Shown here: positions 1,279 to 55,926 of the stretch, piece after piece
Position numbering within the stretch: the first letter of the stretch is position 1
Layout: each line of letters begins with the position of its first letter
Origin: Caldimicrobium sp.
Lineage (GTDB): Bacteria > Desulfobacterota > Thermodesulfobacteria > Thermodesulfobacteriales > Thermodesulfobacteriaceae
Reading direction: 5' to 3'
Assembly (NCBI GenBank): GCA_009903935.1
Contig: WYEG01000044.1
Location: 990-64,989 of the forward strand
Length of the DNA: 64,000 nt
Translations under genes and position numbers: made by a program
Notes under the pieces: generated by a model
What the model was told of the DNA's origin: nothing
The model's database searches: none
Seen by the model: the letters and a program-made list of their open reading frames with translations, nothing else

Positions 1279-1291
1279 ATACCTACCTCCC

Positions 1292-2436: not shown

Positions 2437-2439
2437 GGC

Positions 2440-4056: not shown

Positions 4057-4070
4057 ATACCTTCCCTCCA

Positions 4071-29849: not shown

Positions 29850-31702
29850 GACTTTTTAACCGAGGGGAATAGCTCTTCGTTGGTATGGGGTAAAAAGAGA
29901 GCCGCCATATAGTAATCCATATACTGCGGATGCCCGGAGAGCTCAACATGGGTCATCATCTGAGCAATCCTATTCAACTCAAGTAGCTTTTCTTTAGAAA
30001 GCAGGGCTTTCTTTGCCCCTTGGAGGCTTGTATTACCAAGGAAGAAAAACCTATCACGAGGAAGGTCTGGCAAAAGACCGATGGTTATGGCATCCTCAAG
30101 GTCGATGTAGCTACCAAAGGTCCCGGCTAAGAACACTCTTTTCAGGTCAAATATGCTTAGCCCAGCTGATTCCAGCAAGATCTGATAGCCGGCAAACATC
30201 GCCCCCTTGGCCCGCATGAGATTATCAATATCTGCTTCGGTAAAGACTATATCATGCTCAAGGGCTGATTCTTCTTTAAACACAAGCACATACTCGTAGC
30301 CCTCATCTCCCTTCCTTAGGCGAGGATGGGCAATGTCTCTACGGAATTTCCCAGACCGGTCGATCAAGCCTACCTTGAAAAGCTGAGCTAAAAGGGAGAT
30401 TATCCCTGAACCGCAGATCCCCTTTGGTCTTTGCTTACCAATGGTTAGGATCATCGGCTCAAAGGTCTCAGGGTCGATGTGGACCCCCTCTATAGCCCCT
30501 GATGTTGCCCGCATTCCATGCTTTATTCCCCCACCTTCAAAGGCAGGACCTGCTGAGCAGGCAGCACACATCAAAAAGTCCCTGTTTCCGACGACAATCT
30601 CTCCATTAGTCCCAAGGTCAATAAAAAGGGTTAGATCCTCCTCAGCGGCGATAAGACTTGCTAAGACCCCGGCGGTAATATCTCCTCCAACATAGCTTGC
30701 CACTGAAGGTGAAAATTGAAAGACCGCTGAATAGGGGCTAAAGCCAATTTCTTTGGCTAAAAGCGGTGGATAGAATTGAGCTACGGGCACATAAGGATGT
30801 TCCCTTAAATACCGAGGCTCAAGCTCTAAAAATAGATGGGTCATAACCGTGTTTCCAGCAAGGGAAAAAAGCTTAACTTCTGATAAGGACCTCCCTGCCT
30901 GCTTTAAAAGCTCTTCAGTAAGCACATGGATCTTTTCCTTAACCCGTTCAGAAAGAAGTTTTAGTCCATCCTTTTTCTTGCAAAACTCAATTCGGCTTAT
31001 CACATCTTCGCCAAAACTTATCTGAGGGTTATAATCAGACGTTTGAGCTAAAACCTCGCCGGTTGAAAGGTCTACAAGCTCAAGCTGCAAAGTTGTTGTC
31101 CCAAGGTCTATGGCTACACCAAGGGGACTAATTTCAGGTTTATCTAAATCAAAAAGAAGTTTATATCCTGTAAAAGGGTCTTCATACCAAAAAAAGGTAG
31201 CCCGAAAGGCTTGAGCCCTAAGAACATGGGGGAGCTTCCTTAAGAATTCAAGCTCAACCTTAAAATTATCACCTACAAAAGGCTTTAGAGCAAGAAGGAC
31301 GCGAGATAGGTCTGGCATGTTGTCTTCAAGGGATGGTGGTTTTAGAGAAAGAGATGCCCAGTTGAGAGGAGAATATAAAGGAAAGCTTTCTTTCCTTTCT
31401 ATGGCTTTAGCAAGGACCCTATCCTTCCTTAAAAGGGCTTTCCGGTCGTATTTACTCTCAACGGGGATGCGAATTACAACATCAGTCAAAGGAACAGTTG
31501 TGCAAGCCTTATAATATATCCCATCAACCTTTTCGCCCTGAACCTCTCCCTTCTCAAGGATAACCTTACATTTCCCGCAGGCACCTAAACCGCCGCAGCT
31601 TGCGTTGATGTGGATACCAAGCCTCATGGCAAGCTCAAGGATGGTCTCGTAGGGATAGGCATCAGCGGTAACTTGATAGGGCTCAAAGGTGACCTTTGGC
31701 AT
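29846..31702 (-). CDS. 2Fe-2S ferredoxin + ASKHA ATPase fusion (RACo-like reductive activator of corrinoid proteins, DUF4445)
   Basis: N-terminal plant-type ferredoxin Cys pattern (CGGLGACGKCKV). The C-terminus shows actin/sugar-kinase-like phosphate motifs (AIDLGTTT, FIDLGTNGE). Confidence 0.7.
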   Translation of the reverse strand: MPKVTFEPYQVTADAYPYETILELAMRLGIHINASCGGLGACGKCKVILEKGEVQGEKVDGIYYKACTTVPLTDVVIRIPVESKYDRKALLRKDRVLAKAIERKESFPLYSPLNWASLSLKPPSLEDNMPDLSRVLLALKPFVGDNFKVELEFLRKLPHVLRAQAFRATFFWYEDPFTGYKLLFDLDKPEISPLGVAIDLGTTTLQLELVDLSTGEVLAQTSDYNPQISFGEDVISRIEFCKKKDGLKLLSERVKEKIHVLTEELLKQAGRSLSEVKLFSLAGNTVMTHLFLELEPRYLREHPYVPVAQFYPPLLAKEIGFSPYSAVFQFSPSVASYVGGDITAGVLASLIAAEEDLTLFIDLGTNGEIVVGNRDFLMCAACSAGPAFEGGGIKHGMRATSGAIEGVHIDPETFEPMILTIGKQRPKGICGSGIISLLAQLFKVGLIDRSGKFRRDIAHPRLRKGDEGYEYVLVFKEESALEHDIVFTEADIDNLMRAKGAMFAGYQILLESAGLSIFDLKRVFLAGTFGSYIDLEDAITIGLLPDLPRDRFFFLGNTSLQGAKKALLSKEKLLELNRIAQMMTHVELSGHPQYMDYYMAALFLPHTNEELFPSVKKS

Positions 31703-37152: not shown

Positions 37153-38205
37153 TTACTTGGCTATAAGGAAGACAGAAAGCAATACAAATAATGCTAAGAT
37201 TACTAAACAAAATGGTGTAGCTTTATATATAAGGCTAAAAATCATCAAATTAATCAAAGAAATAAAAATATACGCTATCAATGAGGTTCCTATGGCCTTT
37301 GTTTGATTAACAGGGGAGTAAAATTTCAGATATATATGTATACACCATAAACTTATAAAAAAACCAGCAAAAAGATAGTAAAATCTAAACAAAAATTCTA
37401 ACATAACCTCTTTAGTTGATTTTCCTACCTTTGATAAAAATTGTAATCTCTGATAGAGCTCTTCGATAGTTAAAAATTTTAATGTTTTTTCAGTCACGAC
37501 TAAAGTAGATGGATTGAATGGTAAAGGTCTTTCCTGCTTATCATACTTTTTGGGCACAAAATTTTCACTTCTTTTTTGAACAACAAGTTTTTCAAGAACC
37601 CAGCTTCCGTTAGAATACAACATCGTCCCTGCCCAGATTACCTCTTCTATTTCTCCTTTTTGATCTATAGTAAGGTATAAAACATCCCCAAGATACTCTG
37701 CATTAGGCTCAAGAGGTTGAGCGATTAAAAAGTAATTTTCACCCTCGAAAAACAATTTCTTTTTTAAAAAAACTAATTCCTTTTTTTTGCCCAAAACTTT
37801 TCTTTCCCATACATCAACTGCATTCTGAAAGGCTATGGGTGAAATATAGTTTAATAATATTCCAGAGAAAAAATTAATCAAGAAGAGGGATAGAAAGAGA
37901 ATCTTATAGACAGTTCTCCTTGAATAGCCTAAGGAAAGCAAAGCCAAAAGCTCTTTTGTCCTAGTTAAATAAAACATGGTCAGAATGGTAGAAAAAGCTA
38001 ATAAATAAGGGAATACTTGATAAAAATTAACTATACCTTTCCAAAAGAGATACTCTAAAAAGATTATGAACGGTTTTCTATATACCGAAAAAGTTGAATA
38101 ACGCTCAAAAAAATCTATAACATTAAAAAAGATAAAAGTTATAGGTAGAAGAAATAAATTAATTTTTAATAGCTCTTTAAATAAAAATTTAGTTGAAACT
38201 TTCAT
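37153..38205 (-). CDS. lptG: LPS export ABC permease LptG (YjgP/YjgQ family)
   Basis: 350 aa with 3 TM helices, a periplasmic beta-jellyroll-like insert, then 3 more TM helices. Paired with the upstream paralog through a 4-nt overlap. Confidence 0.7.
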   Translation of the reverse strand: MKVSTKFLFKELLKINLFLLPITFIFFNVIDFFERYSTFSVYRKPFIIFLEYLFWKGIVNFYQVFPYLLAFSTILTMFYLTRTKELLALLSLGYSRRTVYKILFLSLFLINFFSGILLNYISPIAFQNAVDVWERKVLGKKKELVFLKKKLFFEGENYFLIAQPLEPNAEYLGDVLYLTIDQKGEIEEVIWAGTMLYSNGSWVLEKLVVQKRSENFVPKKYDKQERPLPFNPSTLVVTEKTLKFLTIEELYQRLQFLSKVGKSTKEVMLEFLFRFYYLFAGFFISLWCIHIYLKFYSPVNQTKAIGTSLIAYIFISLINLMIFSLIYKATPFCLVILALFVLLSVFLIAK

Positions 38206-39293
38206 AGATAAGTAGCACCTTTTTTCTTAATATAAACATAGGAAATCCAGATTACTAAGGATATGCTTATGAAAAAGAGAAAGAACCCAACTAAAGGATG
38301 AAATTTGCCAGTTTCAGAAAAGGAGGTGCAGAAATTATAAAATCCAAAGAATAATAAATAGAAAAGAGAACCGATAATAAACAATAGAGTTCGTTGGGGA
38401 GCGTATATGATTAGACCTAAGAAAAAGGCTTGGGTCAACAAAAAAAGAGAGGTCAGCGGGTAAAAAATTCTACCGTATAACTCAGTCATATATCTATAAA
38501 TTTTTCTTTTATCTTTTTCTTTTTGAATAGTTTCTTTAAGCTCAGAAAGTGTCATTTCTCCTCTTTTAATGTAGAAATCCTCTTTTTTTAACTCTTCTGT
38601 ATCAAAAGATATTTCATAATACTTAAATTCCATAACTTCTATGCTACCGCTAGCCTCTTTAAAAAAAGCACTACCTTTTTCTAACGCAAGCATCCCTTGT
38701 TTCAGCGCCAACACCCCGCTTTTCGCAAAGTATATTCCTTTTTTCTCTTGTGTATCTTCTAAAACAAGAGTATCGTATAACCTTGTGCTACCATTTTCTA
38801 AAGTCCTTTTAGCGTATAAAACTAGAGTATCCCCTATTGGAAATGGAGTCCTCTCTGGAATACTGCTTTCCACTAAACCTTTATACAAATTTACTTTCAA
38901 ATCCTTTTGTAATCTTTTTGATAGAGGAACAACCACCATAGTCAAAAATAACAGAAGAAAAAAAATCTTAAAACTGAAAAGAAAAATTACTTTTAAAAAG
39001 TGTTTTAAACTATAACCTAAAGAGAAAAGTGCAAGAATTTCTCTTTCATATTTCATCCTTTGGACTACAAAAAGAATGCTTAAATAGCCTGAAAATAACA
39101 AGGAAAAAGCAGATATTTCACCAATTGATGTAAAAAAAATAATAATTATGTCAAATAACGATAGTTGAAACTGACTAAGTTCAGCAAATATTAAAGTTGC
39201 TCTAATTGTGCCAATGAACAATAGAAGCAGACAAAAAATTATAATTGTATGATATAGATATTCTTTAATTTGATAATAGTAAAAGAGCCTCAT
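38202..39293 (-). CDS. lptF: LPS export ABC permease LptF (YjgP/YjgQ family)
   Basis: 363 aa with the same architecture as its neighbour. First of the pair, as in lptFG operons. Confidence 0.7.
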   Translation of the reverse strand: MRLFYYYQIKEYLYHTIIIFCLLLLFIGTIRATLIFAELSQFQLSLFDIIIIFFTSIGEISAFSLLFSGYLSILFVVQRMKYEREILALFSLGYSLKHFLKVIFLFSFKIFFLLLFLTMVVVPLSKRLQKDLKVNLYKGLVESSIPERTPFPIGDTLVLYAKRTLENGSTRLYDTLVLEDTQEKKGIYFAKSGVLALKQGMLALEKGSAFFKEASGSIEVMEFKYYEISFDTEELKKEDFYIKRGEMTLSELKETIQKEKDKRKIYRYMTELYGRIFYPLTSLFLLTQAFFLGLIIYAPQRTLLFIIGSLFYLLFFGFYNFCTSFSETGKFHPLVGFFLFFISISLVIWISYVYIKKKGATYL

Positions 39294-43104: not shown

Positions 43105-44349
43105 TTAAAACATCTTTTCTGCTATATAAACTGTCAAATCTCCCATAAGATGAGTATATGAAGCCAATTCATTATCATACCATCCATAAACCACAACTTG
43201 AGTAATCGGAACCTCTATGTGAGAACAAAGTATATCTTTTATCTTTTCTTCAGAAAGTCCGCGACAAGCTTTAAATAAATCAACCTTAGCCAAAGCTGTC
43301 CTGGTGTGAGTTTCTCTTCCTTCGATGATGGCGGCTGCCTTTGGATACCCTATGATATCCGTCGACACGTTTTGCTCCATCGAGAATATTAGATATCCTT
43401 TGTATTTAGTTTCAGCTGCCTCCTTATAAATATTATTGATCAAATCTTTGGTAATATGATTTTCTAAACTTTCATCCTGAATGTTTACCGTTAAAATTAT
43501 CAAACTTCCAGTGGTTAAAGGTACTCTTACGCTCTCTGCTATGAAACCGACCTTCTGCATCTCAGGGATGACCAAACCTAAAGCCTCAGCCGCTCCGGTA
43601 GAGGTAAGGATGATGTTGTTAAAAACACTTCTTGCCCTTCTTAGGTCCTTTTCTCCTTCCTTTGGGACCCTATCAAGGATAGACTGAGAAGATGTTGTAG
43701 CATGCACGGTGACCATGGAAGCAGAGAGTATCCTTTCGGGACCAAAATAATCTAAAAGAGGTTTCATCATGTAGGCTAAGCATGTTGTGGTGCAAGATGC
43801 GGATGATATTAGGTGATGCTTTTGAGGATTATACATCTCTTCGTTTATTCCGTATACCATTGTGATTGCATCCTCAGGGATCCCTTTTTCTTTATCTTTG
43901 ACCTTAAAAGGAGCTGAAATGATAACCTTTTCTGCCCCAGCCTGAAAATGCCCACGAGCTGCGCCTTTAGGGTCATCAGGGGAGGCGTTTGGGTCTCTAA
44001 ATTTACCCGTGCAGTCTACTACAAGCTTTACCCCCTCCTCTCTCCATTCTATATCCTTAGGATTTCTGTTTTTCATCAAAAACTTCACCTTAACCCCATC
44101 GATCACCATCGTGCCTTCTTTCTCGTTGAGTTCTTCAATAACCCGATTGGCTTTATGCCCATACAACCACACAGGTAGCCAGCCGTAGGTGCTATCCTTT
44201 TCGATGTACTCCGCAAGGTCTTGGAAGGAGGTTCCTACCGTTCTACCAAGGTTTACCACAATTTCTTTAAAATGCTTACGAGCTACATGGTGCCAAAGGG
44301 TTAACTTACCTATCCTACCGAGCCCGTTTATACCAAGCTTCATAGGCAC
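43105..44349 (-). CDS. Long, divergent glyceraldehyde-3-phosphate dehydrogenase family paralog (414 aa)
   Basis: Rossmann motif INGLGRIGK. The catalytic Cys region SSASCTTTCLA and VTVHATT are retained, and several insertions are visible relative to the canonical 334-aa GapA at 48476-49480. Confidence 0.7.
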   Translation of the reverse strand: MPMKLGINGLGRIGKLTLWHHVARKHFKEIVVNLGRTVGTSFQDLAEYIEKDSTYGWLPVWLYGHKANRVIEELNEKEGTMVIDGVKVKFLMKNRNPKDIEWREEGVKLVVDCTGKFRDPNASPDDPKGAARGHFQAGAEKVIISAPFKVKDKEKGIPEDAITMVYGINEEMYNPQKHHLISSASCTTTCLAYMMKPLLDYFGPERILSASMVTVHATTSSQSILDRVPKEGEKDLRRARSVFNNIILTSTGAAEALGLVIPEMQKVGFIAESVRVPLTTGSLIILTVNIQDESLENHITKDLINNIYKEAAETKYKGYLIFSMEQNVSTDIIGYPKAAAIIEGRETHTRTALAKVDLFKACRGLSEEKIKDILCSHIEVPITQVVVYGWYDNELASYTHLMGDLTVYIAEKMF

Positions 44350-44369: not shown

Positions 44370-47300
44370 TTAAACAACTTTGCTTGCAATTTTACCATAA
44401 TACACATCCCCTGTCATTCCATTAAGGGTTATCCAATCGTAAAGCTTAATTTCAAAGTCTTTAATCTTGGCGAGCTTTTTTTCGTCATCTATTCGAAGTT
44501 CTTCGCAACCAACTACGCAAACTTTACCCAGCCTGTTCGCAACTATAGCCGCATGAGAAGTTTGACCGCCACGGGCGGTTAGCAATCCATCTACTAAGGA
44601 AATTTCTCTTATGTTATCTGGAACGGTGTCGTATCTTAATAAAATTAACGGGTCTTGGGTAGGCTTTAGATTTTCTATATCTTCTAAAGAAAACACAACT
44701 CTACCGGAGAGAATAGTTCCCGAAACCCCAATCCCCTTCCCTATAAGAGGAAGGTTTTTGAGAAAAGAGATTTTAAAATAAGGTATATATTTTTCTTCCC
44801 TTAAATGAATATCCCTAACCTGAAGTATATAAAGGTCCTCCCTTTTCGGGCCCTCAAAGGTAAACTCTATCTCTTGGTGATCCCATCCTTTTTCATAAAC
44901 CAAGTAATAGGCAAGGTCAAGAAGAGCATTGTAAATTTCTGGGAAAGCCTCTTCTAAAGCTTCTCCCTCTCTTCCTTCAATCTTTTTTTGCTCAATCGAT
45001 ATCGGATAGGCATTAACAAGACCGGAGACAATATCCTCTCCTTGGTTATACGGAGTGTAATCGCCCCAAAGGGCAACCCGAGGGAACTTCCCGTAAGGCG
45101 AGGTGGTAAAAACAACGCCCGTTCCAGAATCAGGCTTTAGGTTTCCAAAAATCATTTCCTGGACCAGGATTGCTGTCCCCCATTCCTCGGCTATGCCCAT
45201 AATCTCTCTGTAAAAGGTAGCCTTTTGAAAATACCAGGAATTGAATATCAGTTCAATGCACTTGAAAAGTTGCTCCCAAGGGTCATCAATTACGGGAACA
45301 CCATATTCCTCAATCTTTTTGCGGTAAAGAAAGGCTAACTCCTTCATCTGCTCCCCAGAAAATTCCCGTTTCTTTTTCACATTATATCGTCTCTTATGGT
45401 CTCGCATCAAAGCATTGAAAACATCTCGAGGTATACCATTTGCCATTGCCCAGCTTTGAAGAAATCTTCTATATGTATCCCAGGCAAACCATTCATTTCC
45501 ACTAATTTTAGCTAAGCTTTCCACTATAGTAGGATTGATTCCAACATTTAAAATTGAAGACATCATACCGGGCATGGAAATTACAGCGCCACTTCTAACG
45601 CTTAAAAGCAAAGGATTATCCAAACTATTAAACTGTTTCCCTGTAGAACTTTCAATGTATTGAACCCCAGCTTTAATCAAATCTTCATATAGAGCCCATA
45701 TTTGCTTATACTTTTTTAATAATGGATAAATTCTAAATAATTCTGTTGTCAACACAAATCCGTATGGAATTTTTACCTTAACATTTTCTTCAGTGGATAA
45801 CAATAATAAATTATACGCTTTGTTGCCAAGATAAATAGTATCTGTTGCTTCATTGTCAGGTTTATGTAAATAACTTATAGATTTATCGTAATCATAGGTT
45901 AATAGCATATTTAACTCATCTTTGGTATACATATTTTTTAGCTGGATTAAAGAATTGTAAACCTTTTTAAGAAAATTATCAAGATGTTTTATAACAAAAG
46001 ATTCTGAAATAATATCTCTTAAAAGTATTTCTAATAAGGTATGAAACGCTTCTTCCGTTTTTTTACCAGTCAAAACTTTTTTGTATTTTTCAAGCAAATT
46101 TTTCTTATCTAAAACCTCATAAATTAAAGCAAAGTTATTGAAATAAGGGTTTATATAATAAGATTTTATGATATGTTGGACCCCTTCAAGTAAACCTTTA
46201 AAAATATCAACATATTGATTAAAGGTTAGAGGATAACTTAACAAAGAATTCTCTAAAATATGTAAATAATGGTTAAAACGTTGTGAGCTGATTCCATCTA
46301 CTTCAAGAGCAGTTTTAAATAACTTCATAATGTTTAAAATCTTTTTCATAGTTGATTCTGAAAAAATTTGGAACTTAAATTCCTCAGTTAATTTTGCAAA
46401 CAAAGAGTTTAATATCCATTCTAATCTAAAACTTAATCCTAAAGCATCAAACTTAGGTTCTGAATAGCGTCCAAATATGGAAGGAATATCAGCAGCTATG
46501 TGTCTTTTTTTGATGATCTCCTCTTTTTTTTGAAACTTTTCAGATGAAAGGATATAATGTTCTTTTAAATGTAATAACCAAGTTAATATAATGTCAATCT
46601 GCTCATAAAGTTTTTTTTCATTTAAAACTCTAGGTAATTCTTCTACGAATTTGAAACCAAGAACAGAATATTCTCGAATTAATTCTTCAAGGTCTGAAAG
46701 CGAAAAATAATACTTTTGTCTTATTAAGTTATATAGTCTCAAAAAATTAAGAAATACATTTTTAAGGTTATTATCCGCGTTTATTGATGATATATATCGC
46801 TCTATTTGTTCAACCTTAAATTCAAAAAGTTTTTCAATTTCGTATATTCCAATTACCTTAAAAATGGAAAAAAGGATGTTTTGCATTTCTAAATGATATT
46901 TAAATTCTTCACTAATAATTTTATTTAACAAAACATCTGGTACATATTTAGCTATATGACTAGGATTTAATGTAAACCAAAAGCGCATTATATTTTCCAT
47001 AAAATTAACTACTAAACTTGAGCTTTCAACATGAATAAACTTCCTCAAAAAATGAAATAGAGTATTTTTTCTCCCGTATATTTCATCAAGATAAGTGGAA
47101 AGGTCGCGGATGAGACCTTCTGCACCTATCTCATGAAAAAAAACAGGAATATTTCTACAAAATTGTTTTACCTGATTGTATGTATGCTTTATATCTGAAT
47201 TTAATAAATTACTTATTTCTCTTTGGAAAAGGTCAGTATCGTTTATTGACACTCCATAAAGTTTTATATATATAATCAAACCTATAAGTAAGCTACTACA

Positions 47301-48475
47301 CCATTCAGGATTTTGTCTATAAATTTCTAACCAAACTTTAATATTTTGAACATGATAAGGATTTCTTTTAACTCTCCAATTTAAATCAATCCCAGTTATT
47401 GCCGGAGGTGTAAAACCGTATTTTAAAACCTCTTGAATAAAAACTTCAGTTAAATATACAGCTCTTTTCCTTAAAATAGCAGTTCCTATGCTTTTAATAC
47501 ATTCAAAAACTGTCCAAGGATAAAGATTAGACTTCTGTTTTAAAAATACAAAAAATTTAACGATAAACTCTTCAATGTGTTCGTGAGGTTTTGCCTCAAT
47601 CATTGAGACTAATATTTTATTAACATCACGAAGAAGCTCTTCATGTAATAAACCTAAATCTGAAATTTCTAATAAAGAAAGCAGAATGGATACCCTCTCT
47701 TCTTCACCCAGTGATGTTTCTTTATAACTGATAATTTTAAATATTACTTCCTTTAATATTCTTAATAACTCTAGGTGGTCTGGCAAAGATAATAATTCCT
47801 TTAAAGTCAGTAAAGTCAGATCCGTTTTTTCTATTAAATTGAAATTCTCAATTATTTCTTGATTTGATGGTAATTTGTCTTTAATTTGTCTATACAAACT
47901 GTAAACATTCGAAAAATATCGAATTAATAATTGCCTCGATAAAAATTCTAAATCTTCATCAACTATTTTTTCATTAATTAACCCTAATATCTTCTTTAAC
48001 GAAATCGCTATTTCAAAAAAAGTTTTAAATTGATTTTCATTTAGACCTAAGAATCTTTCAATCAAATTGTTAAATAAAAACTTTAATTTTATAATGTCTG
48101 TCACATTTTCTATTGTTTTTTTCAAAAGAGAGAGAATAATTTCACTAACTTTAGTATTGACATCTTTTTCTTCTCCATAAAATCCAAATAAAAGGTCAAA
48201 AAGCAATTGCAAAAATTGATCAAAAAATTCATTCTTGTAAATATAACCTACATTGTTAAGCAAAAAGAGCCTAAGCTCTTCAAGAACTAAGTGAGTATTT
48301 CTGTAAGGATGAAATACCTCTTTTAGTAGATTTTCAAACTGATTCTTTAAGGCTGGAAAGGATTGAAAAGCATGAATAAGAGGCTCATATTTTTTATCAA
48401 ATTCAACCTTTTCAATGTAAGTTTCTGCTAAATTTGCTAAATAAGCCTGAGAAACAAACTGTTCCTGCGTCTGCA

Positions 48476-48476
<1 letters not shown>
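44370..48476 (-). CDS. 1368-aa protein: unknown helical N-terminal region + PPDK-type ATP-grasp + PEP-utilising phosphohistidine swivel domain (no PEP/pyruvate-binding domain)
   Basis: The C-terminal third carries PPDK-like motifs (NPLLLSVRSGAVISMPGMM, GTAILVQEMIFGN, GTGVVFT, QGEDIVSG, EIEFTFE) and the swivel motif TARGGQTSHAAIVANRLGK. It is an uninterrupted ORF whose ATG overlaps the gapA stop (TAATG). Confidence 0.75.
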
Positions 48477-49914
<1,438 letters not shown>

Positions 49915-49931
<17 letters not shown>

Positions 49932-50787
49932 TGTCTCGTAGGGTTAAACCTATTTCTAAATCTTCGAACTCCTCTTTTAAACGTTGATAAAGTAGTTGAG
50001 AGATGGCTGGAGACCTATGTCTCCCGCCAGTGCATCCTATACCTATAGCCAAGTATCGTCTCCCCTCGGTTAGATGAAAACTTATAACCATCCTCAAAAA
50101 TTCTTCCATACCCTTCAAATACTTTTCTGTTCTCGTGTCAGATAAAAGGTAACGAATTATTCTCTCGTCTGTCCCGGGTAAAGGTTTTAAATCAGGAACG
50201 AAATAAGGATTGGGTAGAGCTCGGACATCAAAGATATAGTTTGCCTCAAAAGGAAGCCCATACTTAAAACCAAAGGAAATGATGTGCAGAAAAGGCTTGT
50301 GTAAGTTTTTACCTCGTCCAAAAATCCTTTGAATTTCCGACCTGAGTTGATGATAGGTAAAGTTGCTTGTTTCAATGATGTAAGTTGCATAATCTTTAAG
50401 AAAGGATAAAAGCTCCTTTTCTTTCATTACCGCTAATTCGATATTTCCCATTTCTCGTAAAAGAGGATGGGGTCTTCGTGTCTGGTTATACCTGGTGATG
50501 AGAACCTCGGTCTTTGCGGTTAAATATAAGAGCTCAAAGGTTGGATACTCCCTTCGAAGGTCTTTATACACCTTAGGGAACTCCTCCAAAAAGTAAGGGT
50601 CCCTAAGGTCAACAACCATGGCTAATTTGTCCGTAAGTTTTGATTCGCTAACCTCCTTCAAGTAGGATTTTAAAAGCCTTATGGGAAAGTTATCGATAGC
50701 AAGAAAATCTAAATCCTCAAAGGTGCGAAGGGCGGTGCTTTTGCCCGCCCCAGATTCTCCAGTGATGATGACTAAGTAGGGTTGCAT
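49915..50787 (-). CDS. rapZ: RNase adapter protein RapZ (YvcJ/YhbJ)
   Basis: ITGESGAGKSTA P-loop and a C-terminal GCTGGRHRS motif. 290 aa, downstream of rpoN-hpf. Confidence 0.9.
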
Positions 50788-50788
50788 G

Positions 50789-51292
50789 CTAAGAGAGAAC
50801 AGGAACTAACATGATTTCTTTATCACCAGCCCTGTAGAGGCAACATACTTTATCATAGTCGGTATTGTAAAAGAGAAAAACCGTATCCTTGCCTTTGCGA
50901 AAGATCTCAAAGGCTTCTTCCGTTGAAAGTGGAGAAACTTCTACCTCTTGCACAGTATAGCCTGGTGAAGCAACAGGTCTTGCTTCAGTTCCTCCCCTTG
51001 GCGGTCTAATCTCCTTTTTCTTTTCTTTTAATTTCTTTACCTGCTTTTCTAAGGACTCATAGGCAAAATCAATGGATGAATATATATCATCTGTCTCCTC
51101 TTTTACGACTATCCTTTCCCCATCACCCGTTAAAATCACCTCGCAGATTTCACGAAACTTCTCTCTTTTAAAGATAACTTGAGCATGCACTGGTCCATAA
51201 AAATACTTCTCAAGCTTGCTAAACTTCTTTTCTGCGTATTCAGCTATGGCTGGTGATGAATCCATACCTTTAAAGGTAAAATGAAATTCCAT
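50789..51292 (-). CDS. hpf: Ribosome hibernation promoting factor, long form
   Basis: MEFHFTFKGMDSSPAIAEYAEKK... S30AE-type N-domain plus a C-terminal dimerisation domain. The ATG at 51292 follows GGAGGAGG. Confidence 0.85.
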   Translation of the reverse strand: MEFHFTFKGMDSSPAIAEYAEKKFSKLEKYFYGPVHAQVIFKREKFREICEVILTGDGERIVVKEETDDIYSSIDFAYESLEKQVKKLKEKKKEIRPPRGGTEARPVASPGYTVQEVEVSPLSTEEAFEIFRKGKDTVFLFYNTDYDKVCCLYRAGDKEIMLVPVLS

Positions 51293-51316
51293 AGCACCTC
51301 CTCCTTTCAAATAAGT

Positions 51317-52705
51317 TTATTTTTTCTTACGCTCTCTTATGGATGGGATGTTTAGCATTTCTCTATACTTTGTGACAGTTCTCCTAGCGATCTTTACTCC
51401 AAGCCTTTTCTGAAGCTCTTTAGCAAGCTCGGCATCGCTTAAAGGTTTAGACTTATCTTCCTTTTCTATCAGCTCTTTTAGATAGTTCATGATTGCTTTA
51501 GAGGAAACACCCTCACCAGAAGATTTTACATAGCCCCAGGATAGAAAATACTTAAGGGGTAAAATCCCTAATGGGGTATCAACATACTTCTGCGAAACAA
51601 CCCTGCTTACAGTTGATTCATGAAGGTTTGTCTCCTCGGCAAGCATCCTTAAGGTTAAGGGTTTTAAATACTTTGGACCCTTCTCAAAGAACTCCTTCTG
51701 GTGGTCTAAGATAGCTTTGCCTATGCGATAAAGGGTTGTGTATCTGTAGTCTAAAGCTTTAAGCAGAGTCTCTGCCATCCGCATCTTTTCCCGAAGATAC
51801 TCTTGGGTTTGCTTCGGCACACCCTTTAGCCTTCTTTTTAACAATTGAGTATAATAGCTGTTAAGCCTTAGCTCAAACTGGTTTTCTTTAAGCACCTCAA
51901 CCTTCCACTCGCCATCCTCTTCATAAAACCTAAGGTCCGGAACGACTGAAAGGTGGTTTACGGAACGAAAGTTGCGAGCCGGGTAGGGCTCAAGGCTCTT
52001 AATAACCGACAAAGCCTCTTCAACCTCTTCCGGCGAACTTTTTAAATGCTGAGAAAGTGCTTCAACGCCTTTAGGGATTTCTTCTAAATATTCTTTTACT
52101 ATTCTGTAAGGAAGGCTATCCTCCTTGAAGCCCAAAGATTCAAGTTGAGCTAAAAGGCATTCCCTTAAATTAAGGGAGGCAACGCCTACTGGGTCAAGAA
52201 ATTTTATTATATTTCTAACCTTTTCTATCCTTTCCACGGGTAGACCAGTATCTTTTGAAATATCTTCTGGCGAGACCATCAGATAGCCCCGGTCATCAAG
52301 GTTGCCAATGATGTATTGAGCGATCCTTTTATCAAGCTCCGAAACATCCTTTAAGTTTAACTGCCATAAAAGATAATCAGCTAAGGATTCTTCAGCTTTA
52401 ACTGTCCTTTCAAGAAGGTTTACCTCTTCCTCTGGCTCCTCCTCTCCAAAGTGGTACCTGGTATAACCGTAGTCCCAATCGACCTCTTCATTAAGATGCA
52501 CTTCATCGCTGCTTCTTGTTTGTTTTCTTCTGGGTTCTAAAGGGAGGTCCTTAAATTCGACCTCTAAGAAAGGATTGCTGTTTACCTCTTCAAGAAGGTA
52601 TTCTTGAAGCTCTAAGGTGTTCATGGGTAGGACTTTAAGAAGAAGCTTTAGTTGAGGAGTCAAAAGAAGCTGCGGAACAAGCTTGAGCTGATTTTTAACT
52701 TCCAT
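51317..52705 (-). CDS. rpoN: RNA polymerase sigma-54 factor
   Basis: N-terminal region I (LKLVPQLLLTPQL), core-binding region and C-terminal RpoN box (ARRTVTKYRE). Confidence 0.95.
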   Translation of the reverse strand: MEVKNQLKLVPQLLLTPQLKLLLKVLPMNTLELQEYLLEEVNSNPFLEVEFKDLPLEPRRKQTRSSDEVHLNEEVDWDYGYTRYHFGEEEPEEEVNLLERTVKAEESLADYLLWQLNLKDVSELDKRIAQYIIGNLDDRGYLMVSPEDISKDTGLPVERIEKVRNIIKFLDPVGVASLNLRECLLAQLESLGFKEDSLPYRIVKEYLEEIPKGVEALSQHLKSSPEEVEEALSVIKSLEPYPARNFRSVNHLSVVPDLRFYEEDGEWKVEVLKENQFELRLNSYYTQLLKRRLKGVPKQTQEYLREKMRMAETLLKALDYRYTTLYRIGKAILDHQKEFFEKGPKYLKPLTLRMLAEETNLHESTVSRVVSQKYVDTPLGILPLKYFLSWGYVKSSGEGVSSKAIMNYLKELIEKEDKSKPLSDAELAKELQKRLGVKIARRTVTKYREMLNIPSIRERKKK

Positions 52706-52709
52706 AGCC

Positions 52710-53435
52710 CTAAATCCTAAATTCCTGTCCTAAGTATTTTTCCCTGACCAAGGAATTTTCAACCAAACTTTTAGCATCACCACTTCCAATTATTTCGCCA
52801 TCAGCAATAACATAAGCTCGGTCGCAGATCTGTAAAGTATCACGAACATTATGGTCAGAAATGATAAGACCAATGTTTGCTTCTTTAAGAGTTTTAAAGA
52901 GCTTCTTTAGCTGTGAGATACCTATCGGGTCTATCCCAGCAAAAGGTTCGTCAAGAAGGATAAAAAGGGGCTCAGTTAGAAGAGCACGAACAACCTCAAC
53001 CCTCCTTTTTTCTCCTCCTGATAGATGGTGAACCTTCTGCTTAAGAAGCTCCTTAAGCTCAAAAAGCTCTACATAGCGTTCAAAAAGCTCTCTTTTATTA
53101 GAGCCGTTAGAGGATGAATTTCCCCCTTCTAAGCCCATACGGAGGTTTTCCTCAACGGTAAGGCTCCTAAAAACGGAAGATTCCTGAGGGAGATAGACTA
53201 TACCTCTTTTGGCGCGCTCAGCAACATCAAGGTCTGTGATGTCTTCATCATTAAGATAAATTCTTCCTTCGTCAGGATACAAAAACCCTGCAATCATGTA
53301 AAAGGTGGTAGTTTTGCCCGCACCATTAGGACCAAGAAGCCCTACGATTTCACCCCTCTCGACTTCCACGCTAACCCCTTTAACCACCAATCTTTTTTTA
53401 AAACTTTTTTTTAAATTCTTAGCTAAAAGGGGCAT
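52710..53435 (-). CDS. lptB: LPS export ABC transporter ATPase LptB
   Basis: GPNGAGKTT, LSGGEKRR, LLDEPFAGIDP. Sits between lptA and rpoN. Confidence 0.9.
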   Translation of the reverse strand: MPLLAKNLKKSFKKRLVVKGVSVEVERGEIVGLLGPNGAGKTTTFYMIAGFLYPDEGRIYLNDEDITDLDVAERAKRGIVYLPQESSVFRSLTVEENLRMGLEGGNSSSNGSNKRELFERYVELFELKELLKQKVHHLSGGEKRRVEVVRALLTEPLFILLDEPFAGIDPIGISQLKKLFKTLKEANIGLIISDHNVRDTLQICDRAYVIADGEIIGSGDAKSLVENSLVREKYLGQEFRI

Positions 53436-53544
53436 GCTATCTCCTTATTCACTACCTCAACCTTTAAAGATCCCTCGCTTCGCTCGGGAGGACCAAAACC
53501 ATGCTTTTCTCAGGTAGATATGGGGGTCATGCTATCTCCTTATT
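53433..53544. repeat. Perfect 17-bp direct repeat (CATGCTATCTCCTTATT) at 53433-53449 and 53528-53544
   Basis: Read directly from the sequence. One copy carries the lptB RBS and ATG, and the other carries the lptA stop codon followed by the same ATG. The 78-nt spacer between them contains inverted-repeat elements. Confidence 0.85.
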
Positions 53545-54020
53545 ACCGCTCTAACCCTTCCACCTTTTGATAAAACCTCGCTTCGGTCTTCATTAAAATA
53601 AACTATCACAATATCACCTTCTACGAGGTGGTTCTCATACCAAACCTTCGGCTGGTCCTCTAAAATAAGCTTCTCTTCAGCCTTAAAATAAGTAGCTTTG
53701 CCTGCGCTGGCCTTCCATTTGCCTTTTTCTATACGGACCTTACCAATGGCAACCCCCCTCTGAAGTTCACGCCCTTTCTCACTTTTTGTGTAGTAAACAT
53801 AGAGCTTATCAGCCCAAAGCTTTAGATCCTTTTCTTCCGCATAGACCTTTCCGGTAAAAATGGCTATCCCTTCATCCTCTAAAACCTCCATCTTATCTGC
53901 AGTAATGTTAATATCCCCAGAGATAGCAAGGGTAAAAGACAATAGAGCAAAAAAAGCAATCAACAGGGGTAACAAAGGAACTTTTTTCATCGCTCCATTT
54001 TGATTATAAATCATCCCCAA
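53532..54020 (-). CDS. lptA: LPS transport periplasmic protein LptA (OstA-like)
   Basis: Signal peptide followed by an OstA_N-like beta-jellyroll (ITADKMEVLEDEGIAIFTGKV...). The start is uncertain; the ATG at 53990 gives a classic signal peptide. Confidence 0.7.
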   Translation of the reverse strand: MGMIYNQNGAMKKVPLLPLLIAFFALLSFTLAISGDINITADKMEVLEDEGIAIFTGKVYAEEKDLKLWADKLYVYYTKSEKGRELQRGVAIGKVRIEKGKWKASAGKATYFKAEEKLILEDQPKVWYENHLVEGDIVIVYFNEDRSEVLSKGGRVRAVIRR

Positions 54021-54074: not shown

Positions 54075-54887
54075 ATGAAAAGGAAAAGCCCGTTTATCCT
54101 AAAGCTATCCTACTTCATCCTTATCCTTGGGCTCCTGTTTGTAGGCATAGAATATATCCTTAAAAATTACTACAAAACGAGCATATGCCCAACCTCTGGC
54201 TGTTTTATAGCTAGCGAGCTCCTTCTCCTTGGGAAAAACTATCTCCTAATCCTTGCCCTCCTTTTTTATACAGCTTTAATATTTCTTTTATTCTTATACC
54301 AAAAAACTGGAGGTAGTCTTTTTAAGAACCTACTTCTATATCTTTTAACCGCAGGTCTAATAGGGGATGCCTATCTGATCTTTTTTCTCTTCATAAACAT
54401 TGCTGAGCCCTGTTGGTTTTGTCTAATAGTGTTTTTTATTACTCTTGCCGGAGCTATTTCCGTCTTGGTCTATCTAAGGGACGAACCCATTACCTCACCC
54501 CATTTTTTAGTAGCTTTGACTTTTGGAATGTTTAGCCTTGCCCTGGGTTTCTACATTTCATCACCATCCCCAATTATCTCAAAAGAAGGTAATGTTAAAA
54601 AAGCAAATTTGATCCTCATCTACTCCCAACACTGTCCGGCCTGTAAAGAAGTCATAGCAGAAAGCGAAAGATTGGGCCTAAAGCTTGAAAAGGTCTCGTT
54701 AAATCAAGCTTATCCCTTAGTAAAAGCTCTAAATCTTAAAAGCCTACCCTGCCTGTTAGAATTTAAAGAGGACAAAATTGAAATTTATACAGGCTTTGAA
54801 GCTGTTAAAAACAGGCTCAATTTAGAAAAAAAACAAAATCCCTGCGTTGAGAACCCCCAAGAAGGAGGTTTGTGTGCCATCCCCTGA
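54075..54887 (+). CDS. Membrane thiol-disulfide oxidoreductase, VKOR-like TM domain fused to thioredoxin-like domain (tentative)
   Basis: About 5 TM helices with a loop Cys pair (CPTSGC), an intramembrane CWFC, and a C-terminal soluble domain with CPAC. This architecture resembles bacterial VKOR-Trx fusions. Confidence 0.4.
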   Translation: MKRKSPFILKLSYFILILGLLFVGIEYILKNYYKTSICPTSGCFIASELLLLGKNYLLILALLFYTALIFLLFLYQKTGGSLFKNLLLYLLTAGLIGDAYLIFFLFINIAEPCWFCLIVFFITLAGAISVLVYLRDEPITSPHFLVALTFGMFSLALGFYISSPSPIISKEGNVKKANLILIYSQHCPACKEVIAESERLGLKLEKVSLNQAYPLVKALNLKSLPCLLEFKEDKIEIYTGFEAVKNRLNLEKKQNPCVENPQEGGLCAIP

Positions 54888-55926
54888 ATTATCTTGCCAA
54901 ACCACCCATATTGGAAGCTTGCCCTTTGAAGATATCGACTCTGCTTTAGCCTATGCCTTTAAGTTTAACATCCCTGCTTGGCCACAGCTTCCAAGATTTA
55001 AATCTGAAGGGATGATCCTTCAGGCTTGCGAGGGGTTGCCCGGATTTATCCCAGAGCTGGAAAGAATTGACCTAACCCATCCTAATTTTGAAGAAGGCTT
55101 GTTTAAAACCCTTGAAGATTATCAAAGGGTCATTACAGATGGGGACGATGAGGTTTTAACCCATTATCTACCTTCGGTACAATCCGCTCGAGCTCTTAGA
55201 CCTTTTGTGGAAAAGGCAAGGCTGTATCCAGGTTCTTGGGTTAAAGGTCAAATTACCGGTCCATTTACCCTTTCTTCAGCCTTGAAAGACCTTGAGGGGC
55301 AAAGCCTAATTTTTATCCCCGACCTTAGAGAGCTCGTTGTCAAATTTTTAACCTTAAAAGCTATTGCCCAAGCTAAGTTGCTTTCCGAAACCGGAAAAGG
55401 GGTCATCATCTTTCTTGATGAACCAGGCTTAGCCGGATTTGGTAGCTCAGGCTTTCTAACGGTCACTAAAGAAGAAGTGATCAGCATGCTAAAAGAGCTT
55501 ATTCAAAATCTCAGACAGAAGGGGTTTCTTACTGGTATTCATGTTTGTGCAAACACCGACTGGGACCTTGTCTTCCAATCCGACCCAGACATAGTAAGCT
55601 TTGATAGTTTTAACTTCTTTGAAAAATTTACCATTTATACCAAAGAACTAAGCCTTTTCTTAAAAGAAAAAGGAAGATTTATCGCCTGGGGATGCGTGCC
55701 AACGGATAAAGAGAATTTAGAAAGGATAAACTTTACCGAAATAGAAAAACGCATCCTTCGCCAATTAGAAGACCTTTCAAGCTTGCTTTCTTATTCTATT
55801 AATGACCTGTTAAAACAAAGTTTATTCACTCCTGCTTGTGGAATGGGAAGCTTATCCAGTGAGAAGGTTGACAAGGTGGTTGAATATTTGCAAAAGGTGC
55901 AGAATATTATAATTAATTTAACTTAA
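54874..55926 (+). CDS. Stand-alone MetE C-terminal (Meth_synt_2)-like zinc methyltransferase domain protein
   Basis: THIGSLPF N-terminal motif, LDEPGLA (compare MetE IDEPAL), GIHVCAN (His-x-Cys) and TPACGMGS (compare MetE DCGLK). The GTG at 54874 lies 5 nt after AAGGAGG. Confidence 0.55.
   Translation: MPSPELSCQTTHIGSLPFEDIDSALAYAFKFNIPAWPQLPRFKSEGMILQACEGLPGFIPELERIDLTHPNFEEGLFKTLEDYQRVITDGDDEVLTHYLPSVQSARALRPFVEKARLYPGSWVKGQITGPFTLSSALKDLEGQSLIFIPDLRELVVKFLTLKAIAQAKLLSETGKGVIIFLDEPGLAGFGSSGFLTVTKEEVISMLKELIQNLRQKGFLTGIHVCANTDWDLVFQSDPDIVSFDSFNFFEKFTIYTKELSLFLKEKGRFIAWGCVPTDKENLERINFTEIEKRILRQLEDLSSLLSYSINDLLKQSLFTPACGMGSLSSEKVDKVVEYLQKVQNIIINLT

Follow-up and report, generated by a model that had tools for sequence, protein, structure and literature searches.

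We found that the giant open reading frame at positions 44370..48476 (-) of the window, i.e. the whole 64,000-nucleotide stretch of Caldimicrobium sp. DNA analyzed here, represents a real, widely conserved and unstudied enzyme family; no characterization of any of its members was found in the literature. The uninterrupted frame starts with ATG and encodes 1368 aa, in which a helical N-terminal domain is joined to a PPDK-type ATP-grasp domain and a phospho-histidine swivel domain, without the PEP/pyruvate-binding TIM barrel. We tentatively propose that the giant protein could be a dikinase that carries its acceptor site in the N-terminal domain and acts as a partner of GAPDH at the 3-phosphoglycerate/1,3-bisphosphoglycerate step, a reading that we favor while holding it to be somewhat short of probable.

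Homologues with the same architecture form 382 clusters at 50% identity and occur in the genomes of at least 500 species, the hosts being Thermodesulfobacteria, Desulfobulbia, Desulfobacteria, Thermodesulfovibrio and some Bacteroidota. At a length of 1350-1540 aa and with the stop at the same place, this architecture recurs in 74 independently assembled loci. The frame might also be read as an artefact, that is, as an assembly chimera (a possibility raised by an earlier sequence-only reading of this DNA), a mis-called fusion or a PPDK pseudogene in decay, with foreign or non-coding DNA making up the N-terminal half of low GC; indeed, GC and GC3 are lower in the N-terminal half of the gene (0.27 and 0.21) than in the C-terminal half (0.39 and 0.35). 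However, the same GC gradient was seen in the giant gene in every low-GC lineage examined, and lptF/G and other genes in the window are as AT-rich as the N-terminal half of the giant. Moreover, a dN/dS value of 0.10 was obtained over the first 577 codons, in comparison with a relative at 88% amino-acid identity. The conserved architecture, the dN/dS value and the recurrent gradient thus refute the artefact reading, to which we assign a negligible probability.

According to the alignments, the C-terminal part of the giant is derived from PPDK, and both its ATP-grasp and swivel modules are intact. Residues 873-1368 align to residues 18-511 of PPDK (EC 2.7.9.1; C. symbiosum, 1KBL), an alignment in which the residues of the ATP/Pi site and the T-S-H motif are preserved, and a phmmer search against the PDB aligned residues 882-1362 to approximately PPDK 17-511. 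The PPDK-type nucleotide/Pi-binding ATP-grasp domain (residues 873-1222; 44811..45860 (-); aligned to PPDK 18-337) retains the equivalents of K22, R92, E323, Q335 and R337, with an E at the position of D321. The phospho-histidine swivel, or PEP-utilizers, domain (residues 1240-1363; 44388..44759 (-)) can be aligned both to PPDK 373-511 and to 2fm4, the central domain in isolation; its catalytic His1308 (in T1306-S1307-H1308; codon at 44553..44555 (-)) corresponds to PPDK His455 and is conserved in 48 of the 49 cluster representatives. Pfam models PPDK_N (PF01326) and PEP-utilizers (PF00391) match residues 883-1165 (E 6.6e-24) and 1275-1356 (E 2.8e-16), respectively, and PEP-utilizers_C (PF02896) gave no Pfam match in the giant even at E <= 1. 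The protein ends 60 residues past His1308, at approximately PPDK residue 511, where the linker to the TIM barrel of PPDK starts, and the barrel is absent from all the giant homologues listed. The sequence-only reading, whose listed motifs were all found in the translated frame, had placed here an ATP-grasp domain and a swivel with a conserved His, followed about 60 aa later by the stop and no PEP/pyruvate barrel; Pfam, NCBIfam and the PDB alignment agree on the two modules, and the Pfam check that it had called for bears out the missing barrel.

Among the NCBIfam models, TIGR01828 (PPDK) was the best for the giant, with 363.6 bits against a cut-off of 843.45, which was not reached. Neither were the cut-offs of the PEP synthase models TIGR01418 (70.4 bits; cut-off 739.75) and NF005057 (83.8 bits; cut-off 598), of the rifampicin phosphotransferase model NF041857 (30.7 bits; cut-off 999), or of NF004531 (276.8 bits; cut-off 456), which describes VadK-type proteins of approximately 490-534 aa that contain the ATP-grasp and His domains and nothing else. 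VadK/Rv1127c of M. tuberculosis is the closest characterized precedent for a barrel-less PPDK: this truncated PPDK autophosphorylates on its swivel His with ATP and Mg, binds MCS/MCD in pull-down experiments, and is thought to regulate such metabolic enzymes (PMC13400623). Both proteins are derived from PPDK, lack the barrel and are tied to metabolic enzymes, VadK by pull-down and the giant by its operon. However, VadK has approximately 490 aa and no extra domain, whereas the giant has 870 more conserved residues, and the context of VadK is the methylcitrate cycle, whereas that of the giant is GAPDH/PGK. Since the giant resembles canonical PPDK more than it does VadK, its truncation is independent of that of VadK.

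Rifampicin phosphotransferase, which had been named earlier as a precedent with another domain order, resembles the giant in having an ATP-grasp domain, a C-terminal swivel His on a single tether, and a separate acceptor domain that retargets the enzyme (PMC4844700). The order does differ (ATP-grasp, acceptor, His, as opposed to a proposed acceptor, ATP-grasp, His in the giant), and the acceptor domain of that enzyme is unrelated to the one proposed here; as a barrel-less PPDK, VadK is the closer precedent. The plant and algal glucan water dikinase (GWD; approximately 1400-1460 aa) is similar to the giant in size and in its large N-terminal acceptor region, but its order is CBM45s, His domain and C-terminal ATP domain, whereas in the giant the ATP domain precedes the His domain (PMC13553574).

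Compared with PPDK, the giant thus lacks the C-terminal barrel and carries an unrelated helical domain of 870 residues at its N-terminus. Residues 1-872 are rich in L/I/E/K/F/N and are predicted to be almost wholly helical; the earlier description of this part as K/N/I/L/F-rich and helical therefore stands, except that two small beta hairpins are also predicted. As had been noted, the region resists assignment: no match was found among Pfam, NCBIfam and PDB sequence profiles, and Foldseek, run on two confident AlphaFold models (pLDDT ~86), returned no specific relative and no characterized family. The whole domain showed a generic alpha-solenoid resemblance only (TM <= 0.18), and its conserved core had no Foldseek match (best E 0.37). 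An identity as a HEAT/ARM alpha-solenoid was rejected, as HEAT/ARM Pfam models did not match the giant, no internal repeats were found (hhalign between segments gave a probability of at most 3.9%) and the TM values were low; the absence of repeats together with these TM values indicates that the domain is not a typical repeat scaffold. The fold is apparently new.

The N-terminal domain consists of a poorly conserved helical part (residues 1-260; 47697..48476 (-)), with 22-40% identity to distant homologues, and of a conserved part (residues 261-872; 45861..47696 (-)), presumed to hold the acceptor-binding or second catalytic site. Two blocks of the latter are as conserved as the catalytic modules. 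The first (residues 341-520; 46917..47456 (-)) contains the invariant residues H375, D413-T-D415, E453-G454, R457, D464, R478, K479 and H482. In the second (residues 641-700; 46377..46556 (-)), a beta hairpin (651-657/666-672) leads into a helix, and K657, R658, H659, P665, S666, G669, Y671 and E673 are invariant; its hairpin loop K657-S666 (46479..46508 (-)), including the low-pLDDT residues 658-665, is a candidate mobile catalytic loop. Across the 49 representatives, down to 23% overall identity, 14 residues of the N-terminal domain are 100% invariant and 5 more are conserved in at least 98%. These approximately 19 residues, which include D413, R457, D464, R478, K479, H482, K588, Y589, K657, R658, H659 and S666, look like an active site. 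Additionally, a hemerythrin domain precedes the N-terminal domain in some distant relatives.

The giant lies between two GAPDH genes. Upstream, the TAA stop of gapS, which encodes a canonical type I GAPDH of 334 aa (48476..49480 (-)), overlaps the ATG of the giant (TAATG), and this overlap implies translational coupling of the two genes. Downstream, 26 nt past the stop of the giant, the ATG of gapL follows a GGGAGG ribosome-binding site; gapL encodes a long GAPDH paralogue of 412 aa (43105..44343 (-)), which scored 344 bits on the type I GAPDH model TIGR01534 (cut-off 367.2). Its length is 407-420 aa across the family, and, located directly downstream of the giant, it is the deepest conserved partner. 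GapL keeps Cys149, His176, T179, R195, R231 and T208/G209, i.e. the catalytic pair and both phosphate sites, and should therefore, as judged from these residues, still be able to handle G3P/1,3-BPG. In the NAD-binding Asp32 motif, AINDL is changed to VNLGR, Asp32 being replaced by Gly-Arg; this loss and four clade-specific insertions appear to mark a separate GAPDH clade, and GapL probably uses NADP(H).

In order to survey the gene context, including the co-occurrence of gap genes suggested by the earlier reading, 85 giant loci were analyzed, and counts were made on the subsets with enough flanking sequence. Linkage to gap genes was common in this widespread family: 46 of 75 loci have a gap gene upstream of the giant (co-oriented with it in 45), 17 of 64 have gapL immediately downstream, and 8 of 64 have pgk downstream, the operon form being gapS-giant-gapL-pgk. 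The pair of giant and gapL is kept in relatives from other phyla with only ~27% identity in the N-terminal domain. About one third of the loci, including examples from Desulfobulbus and Electrothrix, have no adjacent gap gene. The linkage suggests that the giant probably has a role in the middle part of glycolysis/gluconeogenesis, either as one of its enzymes or as a regulator. The acceptor had been considered unpredictable from the sequence, but it is not wholly so: the conserved GAPDH/PGK linkage leaves as candidates the triose-phosphate/phosphoglycerate node and the GAPDH enzyme.

The dikinase that we tentatively propose, a phosphotransfer enzyme with three modules from the PPDK/PEP-synthase/rifampicin-phosphotransferase superfamily, would work in three steps. 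In the first, strongly suggested by the intact residues, the ATP-grasp domain would bind ATP and probably Pi, and pyrophosphorylation would leave a phosphoryl group on His1308 with the release of AMP and PPi (or Pi). The retained ATP site and T-S-H motif, the conservation of His1308 and the TIGR01828 score point to this chemistry, and VadK, a PPDK truncated at the same place, autophosphorylates the equivalent His (PMC13400623). In the second step, the swivel, on its single linker, would carry the phosphoryl group to a second active site in the N-terminal domain, where the invariant Asp/Arg/Lys/His/Ser/Tyr set of the two conserved blocks would replace the TIM barrel of PPDK. The catalytic-like conservation of these blocks and the low dN/dS argue for such a site, as do the characterized dikinases of the superfamily that have a further large domain or subunit, namely PPDK, PEP synthase, rifampicin phosphotransferase and GWD, all of which use that part for acceptor binding (PMC4844700, PMC13553574). 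In the third step, for which the gene context is our only guide, the acceptor may belong to the GAPDH step of glycolysis/gluconeogenesis, which is consistent with the gap, gapL and pgk linkage, the overlap with gapS, the persistence of the giant-gapL pair across phyla and the catalytic residues of GapL; the third of the loci that lack an adjacent gap gene weighs against it.

The most economical proposal for this third step would be the interconversion of 3-phosphoglycerate and 1,3-bisphosphoglycerate by an AMP-forming, PPi-linked counterpart of phosphoglycerate kinase, with the acyl phosphate passed to or from GapL, the long GAPDH encoded beside it that probably uses NADP(H). The enzyme could run in either direction, as an ATP-driven push in gluconeogenesis or in the regeneration of ATP from AMP and PPi. 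Pairs of genes for a kinase and an acyl-phosphate reductase are an established pattern, as in proBA, argBC and ask/asd. The likeness to PGK and GAPDH, ProB/ProA and ArgB/ArgC is a functional analogy only, in that a phosphoryl-transfer gene stands beside one for a phosphorylating aldehyde dehydrogenase; the giant has no homology to PGK, and its proposed chemistry would convert ATP to AMP through a phospho-His. In its fullest form, the proposal would be a 3-phosphoglycerate, phosphate dikinase (3-PG + ATP (+Pi) <-> 1,3-bisphosphoglycerate + AMP (+PPi)) that would work via phospho-His1308 with an all-helical catalytic fold of a new kind and would channel its substrate in a complex with its own GAPDH paralogue of the NADP type, as an AMP/PPi-linked alternative to PGK in sulfur-cycling bacteria such as sulfate reducers, sulfur disproportionators and cable bacteria, whose sulfate-activation pathway produces or consumes AMP and PPi. 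We consider this full form unlikely. Several points weigh against the dikinase reading as a whole: some loci also encode PGK, a freely reversible enzyme, so that a second 3-PG kinase is not obviously needed; a domain of 870 residues is very large for a C3 substrate; and, to our knowledge, no member of the superfamily makes an acyl phosphate.

The main rival to the dikinase is a regulatory kinase similar to VadK, which we regard as doubtful but worth serious consideration. Here, His1308 would be autophosphorylated and the N-terminal domain would dock on GapL and/or GapS, perhaps also on PGK; the giant would phosphorylate the enzyme, or alter its activity or complex formation depending on its own phosphorylation state, and thus switch the flux of glycolysis/gluconeogenesis in response to ATP/AMP/PPi, or to redox in the hemerythrin-fused variants. 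VadK, a PPDK without the TIM barrel that autophosphorylates and interacts with MCS and MCD of the methylcitrate cycle, and the sensor-type hemerythrin domains of distant members favor such a role over our preferred reading; the score on the VadK-type model and the tight, deep linkage to gapL, whose four surface insertions are possible docking sites, are also in its favor. The only fold resemblance of the N-terminal domain is to alpha-solenoid protein-binding scaffolds, but these matches are weak, the conserved core matches nothing and sequence repeats are absent. Moreover, VadK functions without an extra domain, the module of the giant is nearer to canonical PPDK, and an invariant D/R/K/H/S/Y set conserved like the ATP site fits a catalytic or ligand site better than a docking surface.

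A bacterial glucan (glycogen) dikinase, in which the N-terminal domain would bind an alpha-glucan and His1308 would phosphorylate glucosyl residues and thereby control glycogen turnover, is improbable. By analogy, the similarly large GWD uses the same engine, and a GT5 glycogen synthase gene lies upstream (glgA-gap-giant) in 32 of the 66 loci with enough flank. However, this linkage was found only in Desulfobulbia-type loci, and neither the window nor the loci of Thermodesulfobacteria, Thermodesulfovibrio and Desulfosarcina show it, whereas the gap/gapL linkage spans all lineages; additionally, the domain order is the reverse of that of GWD, and Pfam and Foldseek detected neither a carbohydrate-binding module nor a GWD-type or glycoside-hydrolase-like fold in the giant. 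An enzyme still acting on pyruvate/PEP, with the N-terminal domain as a non-homologous barrel replacement or with a separate barrel subunit completing a split PPDK, is highly improbable: although PPDK, like GAPDH, is an enzyme of lower glycolysis/gluconeogenesis and databases name the giant as PEP synthase or PPDK, these names were assigned automatically on the basis of the two shared domains, no PEP-utilizers_C gene was found in any annotated giant neighborhood, and the linkage is to GAPDH and PGK rather than to enolase or pyruvate enzymes.

The acceptors known for PPDK-type engines are few, namely pyruvate, phenols, rifampicin/flavonoids and glucans, to which the regulatory role of VadK was recently added. 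The giant family, currently misnamed "PEP synthase" or "PEP/pyruvate-binding protein", would add a member in which this engine is joined to a large domain of apparently new fold, and it is found in many environmentally important sulfur-cycling bacteria, including cable bacteria. Its location in gap-pgk operons beside a dedicated GAPDH paralogue implies an unrecognized reaction or control point in glycolysis, which has been studied more closely than any other biochemical pathway. Should 3-PG/1,3-BPG be the acceptor, the family would bear on the handling of AMP and PPi by sulfate reducers and disproportionators; if the giant is instead a regulator similar to VadK, a mechanism newly found in M. 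tuberculosis would be extended to another phylum and another pathway.

The ORF of the giant PPDK-derived protein (44370..48476, minus strand) is uninterrupted, starts with ATG and encodes 1368 aa, and all the PPDK motifs quoted in the sequence-only reading were found in its translation. As that reading had proposed, Pfam searches detected an ATP-grasp domain (PPDK_N, residues 883-1165, E 6.6e-24) and a phospho-His swivel domain (PEP-utilizers mobile domain, residues 1275-1356, E 2.8e-16), and the barrel model PEP-utilizers_C gave no match in the protein even at E <= 1. The top NCBIfam model was the PPDK model TIGR01828, which scored 363.6 bits (cut-off 843.45 bits) over model positions 12-335 of 865; the PEP synthase models reached just 70-84 bits and the rifampicin phosphotransferase model 30.7 bits. 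Using phmmer against PDB chains, residues 882-1362 were aligned with PPDK residues of about 17-511. A residue-level alignment to C. symbiosum PPDK showed that the equivalents of K22, R92, E323, Q335 and R337 are kept, that D321 is conservatively replaced by E, and that the T-S-H motif with the catalytic His is retained (PPDK His455 corresponds to His1308). In the same alignment the protein ends at the start of the PPDK linker to the TIM barrel, about 10 residues past the last swivel strand and 60 past the catalytic His. The initial observation on this protein is confirmed in every particular.

The retained residues strongly imply that the ATP(/Pi)-to-His1308 half-reaction would be intact, and we regard the presence of a dikinase engine (ATP to His) as near certain. 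VadK (Rv1127c of M. tuberculosis), a PPDK cut at the same point, autophosphorylates on the equivalent His (PMC13400623). The giant protein works like the superfamily of PPDK, PEP synthase, rifampicin phosphotransferase and glucan water dikinase, but it lies outside each of these families and outside the VadK-type proteins, because either the barrel is absent, the scores fall below the cut-offs or the domain order differs. Its homologues are publicly named "phosphoenolpyruvate synthase" or "PEP/pyruvate-binding domain-containing protein", and these PEP-type names are automatic and misleading.

A word-seeded search with the N-domain only (residues 1-872) returned 110 clusters, nearly all of 1343-1470 aa and with both PF01326 and PF00391, from hosts including Caldimicrobium, Thermodesulfobacterium, Thermodesulfatator, Thermosulfurimonas, Thiovibrio, Desulfosarcina, Desulfatiferula, Syntrophobacteria and Thermodesulfovibrio yellowstonii. 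When 1.84 billion representatives were searched exhaustively with phmmer, 382 related clusters were identified at E <= 1e-3, the full-length members being of 1335-1540 aa. By scanning one genome per GTDB species, at least 500 relatives were confirmed, of which the best 80 belong mostly to Desulfobulbia (including Candidatus Electrothrix) and Thermodesulfobacteria. The full-text literature was searched by domain names, accessions and concepts, and no study of the family was found. These proteins form a real family, a His-swivel dikinase variant that is both widespread and uncharacterised.

The N-domain is rich in L, I, E, K, F and N, and none of the Pfam and NCBIfam models matched it. An AlphaFold2 model built from 62 homologues (mean pLDDT 86.1, pTM 0.79) agreed with the earlier description of this region as all-helical, since it is predicted to be helical save for two small hairpins (~362-370 and 651-657/666-672). 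When the whole model was compared with the PDB by Foldseek, generic alpha-solenoids alone were retrieved (karyopherins, Rif1, FANCI), with TM <= 0.18 and rmsd of ~30 Å. A second model, restricted to the conserved core (residues 340-700; pLDDT 86.8, pTM 0.82), found no Foldseek match (best E 0.37, TM <= 0.21), and a profile of 25 N-domains searched against all PDB sequences gave at best designed helical repeats at E 0.13. No internal repeats were detected by hhalign among five segments of the domain (<= 3.9% probability). Because the sequence-model, profile, fold and repeat searches were all blank, the N-terminus is, as the sequence-only reading held, genuinely unassignable, and the domain as modelled has no structural relative detectable in the PDB.

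Conservation is unevenly distributed along the N-domain. Residues 341-520 and 641-700 match the PPDK modules in this respect, with identities to T. yellowstonii of 41% and 50% as compared to 52% for the ATP-grasp and 42% for the swivel domain, and residues 1-260 and 521-640 are far less conserved. Among 49 full-length cluster representatives, whose overall identity goes down to 23%, fourteen N-domain residues are 100% invariant (D413, G454, R457, D464, R478, K479, H482, K588, Y589, K657, H659, S666, G669 and D833) and a further five reach at least 98% (H375, R658, P665, Y671 and E673); His1308 is kept in 48 of the same 49. One hairpin carries K657-R658-H659...P665-S666, and its loop is the sole low-confidence stretch of the modelled core. 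As judged from these alignments, the conservation is of the kind that a ligand-binding or catalytic site would show and is unlike that of a passive spacer.

The minus-strand gene order in the window is lptA, lptB, rpoN, hpf, rapZ, GNAT, gapS (the canonical GAPDH gene), the giant gene, gapL (the long GAPDH paralogue), nusB, methyltransferase, cmk, dtd, ZIP and lptF/G, and the gapS stop and the giant start overlap (TAATG). The recurrence of the flanking gap genes, which the earlier reading had suggested surveying, was borne out at 85 homologous loci, at 57 of which gap, gapL or pgk adjoins the giant gene (the denominators below are the loci with enough flank). A canonical gap of ~334 aa lies upstream at 46/75 loci, on the same strand in 45, and a gapL of 407-420 aa lies directly downstream at 17/64 and pgk downstream at 8/64. 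Examples are the order gapS-giant-gapL-pgk (L016, L065 and L075) and giant-pgk (L058 and L073). The query for PGK was an E. coli sequence; the matches are 43-45% identical over ~390 residues (E <= 1e-93), so that the assignment would hold even if the query were not letter-perfect. About a third of the loci, mostly from Desulfobulbus and Electrothrix, have no glycolytic neighbour. At one Candidatus Electrothrix locus (L047, 7235-7909), a PF00300 histidine-phosphatase-superfamily (dPGM/SixA-like) gene lies immediately upstream in the same orientation. Its product might act as a phosphoglycerate mutase or as a phospho-His phosphatase, and such a neighbour occurs in only two loci.

Of the neighbours, gapL shows the deepest association. 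It comes directly after the giant gene in T. yellowstonii (Nitrospirota) and in Desulfosarcina, and also in a Por-secretion (FCB-group) genome in which the N-domain is only 27% identical; a hemerythrin-fused variant, likewise with 27% N-domain identity, has gapL downstream with one small ORF between. The linkage to GAPDH, above all to this dedicated paralogue, and to PGK is strong and deep.

In the window gapL occupies 43105-44343 (-), 26 nt past the giant stop, and its counterparts include L001 12113-13339, L003 12177-13424, L088 11552-12814 and L089 11109-12365. The likely start is ATG 44343 and not GTG 44349 of the mechanical ORF call, because a GGGAGG ribosome-binding site lies 5 nt upstream and the product then agrees with 412-aa database proteins. 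The protein scores 344 bits with TIGR01534 (cut-off 367.2), and its nearest solved structures are ordinary bacterial GAPDHs. Six aligned sequences from very different lineages all share four insertions and keep the S-C-T-T nucleophile, His176, T179, R195, T208/G209 and R231, that is, the GAPDH catalytic pair and both phosphate sites; the NAD-specifying AINDL (Asp32) is replaced by VNLGR. The homologue search retrieved close relatives only, and all the gapL genes seen lie downstream of a giant gene. By these sequence features, gapL proteins appear to be a coherent, distinct clade of long type I GAPDH paralogues. D32G is a key change for NADP use in GAPDH cofactor engineering, and from the replacement of Asp32 we infer that gapL would prefer NADP(H) and hence have an anabolic role.

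In the mechanism that we propose, the C-terminal swivel, on a single tether, would carry the phosphoryl group from His1308 to the N-domain, at its site of invariant polar and basic residues. The N-domain would stand in for the PEP/pyruvate barrel, in the way that rifampicin phosphotransferase uses its rifampicin-binding domain (PMC4844700). That the N-domain is the acceptor site is somewhat favoured. The gene context points to an acceptor at the GAPDH step, and the preferred pair would be 3-PG <-> 1,3-BPG; the many invariant Arg, Lys and His residues would fit a doubly anionic C3 acid. This specific choice is given a low probability. The giant protein would then be a kinase encoded beside the reductase of its acyl phosphate. 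Kinases adjoin acyl-phosphate reductases in proBA and argBC. It could act alongside PGK as a parallel, AMP/PPi-linked route, and labile 1,3-BPG would possibly be channelled to gapL; a replacement of PGK was ruled out, as pgk is in the same operon at 8 loci. The sulfate-activation pathway of dissimilatory sulfur metabolism makes or uses AMP and PPi, and the hosts are mainly dissimilatory sulfur organisms, which is suggestive but confounded by phylogeny.

Alternatively, the giant protein may be a VadK-like regulator of GAPDH, for which VadK itself is a precedent; the solenoid-like appearance of the N-domain in Foldseek is consistent with this, and so are the insertions specific to gapL, which could serve for docking. 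Distant members (23-30% identity) with an added N-terminal hemerythrin domain PF01814 (L086 1166-5788, P0171; L088 7001-11368, P0173) also fit, as the fusion suggests O2, redox or iron sensing; downstream of one of these genes come a long GAPDH gene and then a V-type ATPase operon. However, the invariant constellation resembles an active site and the N-domain has no repeats, and we consider regulation doubtful. A glycogen dikinase would account for the GT5 glycogen synthase gene found upstream of gap at 32/66 loci, but the glgA-gap-giant order occurs only in Desulfobulbia-type loci (L069 477-2102, L004 2333-3949 and ~30 others, at times with an unannotated ~277-aa ORF between glgA and gap), so that the linkage is apparently limited to one lineage, and the protein has no carbohydrate-binding fold; this reading is improbable. 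A pyruvate/PEP enzyme is more improbable still, and a split PPDK, its barrel being a separate subunit encoded nearby, was rejected, as no PF02896 gene turned up in any annotated neighbourhood.

The N-terminal half of the gene (45861-48476) has a GC content of 0.27 and a GC3 of 0.21, versus 0.39 and 0.35 in the C-terminal half (44370-45860). The same gradient was observed in homologues of all low-GC lineages examined, and lptF/G (37153-39293) and other window genes are as AT-rich as the N-terminal half; for these reasons the drop is not evidence for a chimera or horizontal transfer, and looks like AT-biased or relaxed drift in less constrained sequence, not foreign DNA. An artefact, be it an assembly chimera or a foreign N-terminal half, is refuted by this lineage-wide gradient, by an architecture universal in the family and by a dN/dS of 0.10, calculated for the first 577 codons in comparison with a relative of 88% amino-acid identity.

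The lptA-lptB-rpoN-hpf-rapZ cluster, followed by the GNAT acetyltransferase gene and gapS, spans 49461-54020 (-). In proteobacteria, ptsN/npr take the corresponding positions. A PTS-like relay, prompted by these neighbours, was rejected: the scanned neighbours (window ORFs of at least 80 aa), the 49461-54020 (-) interval included, contained no HPr or EIIA domain, and rapZ is linked to the giant gene at only ~11 loci. Elsewhere in the window, 100-5099 (-) and 5821-6912 (-) encode a membrane redox module (NrfD-like and 4Fe-4S dicluster proteins and a nitrate-reductase-gamma-like cytochrome b), followed by a gene for a DUF763 protein; the module resembles Dsr/Qmo-type sulfur-metabolism complexes, in keeping with a Thermodesulfobacteria host that takes part in sulfur cycling. 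A RACo-type reductive activator of corrinoid proteins (Fer2 and RACo domains; 29846-31702, minus strand) adjoins AdoHcy hydrolase and SAM synthetase genes, which hints at Wood-Ljungdahl or methyl-transfer metabolism. A 359-aa ORF without Pfam match (54847-55926, plus strand) overlaps the end of a weakly VKOR-like 270-aa ORF (54075-54887), and Rfam and tRNA scans detected no RNA genes in the window.

Taken as a whole, the layered mechanism (dikinase engine, N-domain acceptor site and acceptor at the GAPDH step) is proposed tentatively, at a little short of an even chance. The giant protein represents a dikinase variant that carries a putative acceptor or partner domain without a detectable structural relative.
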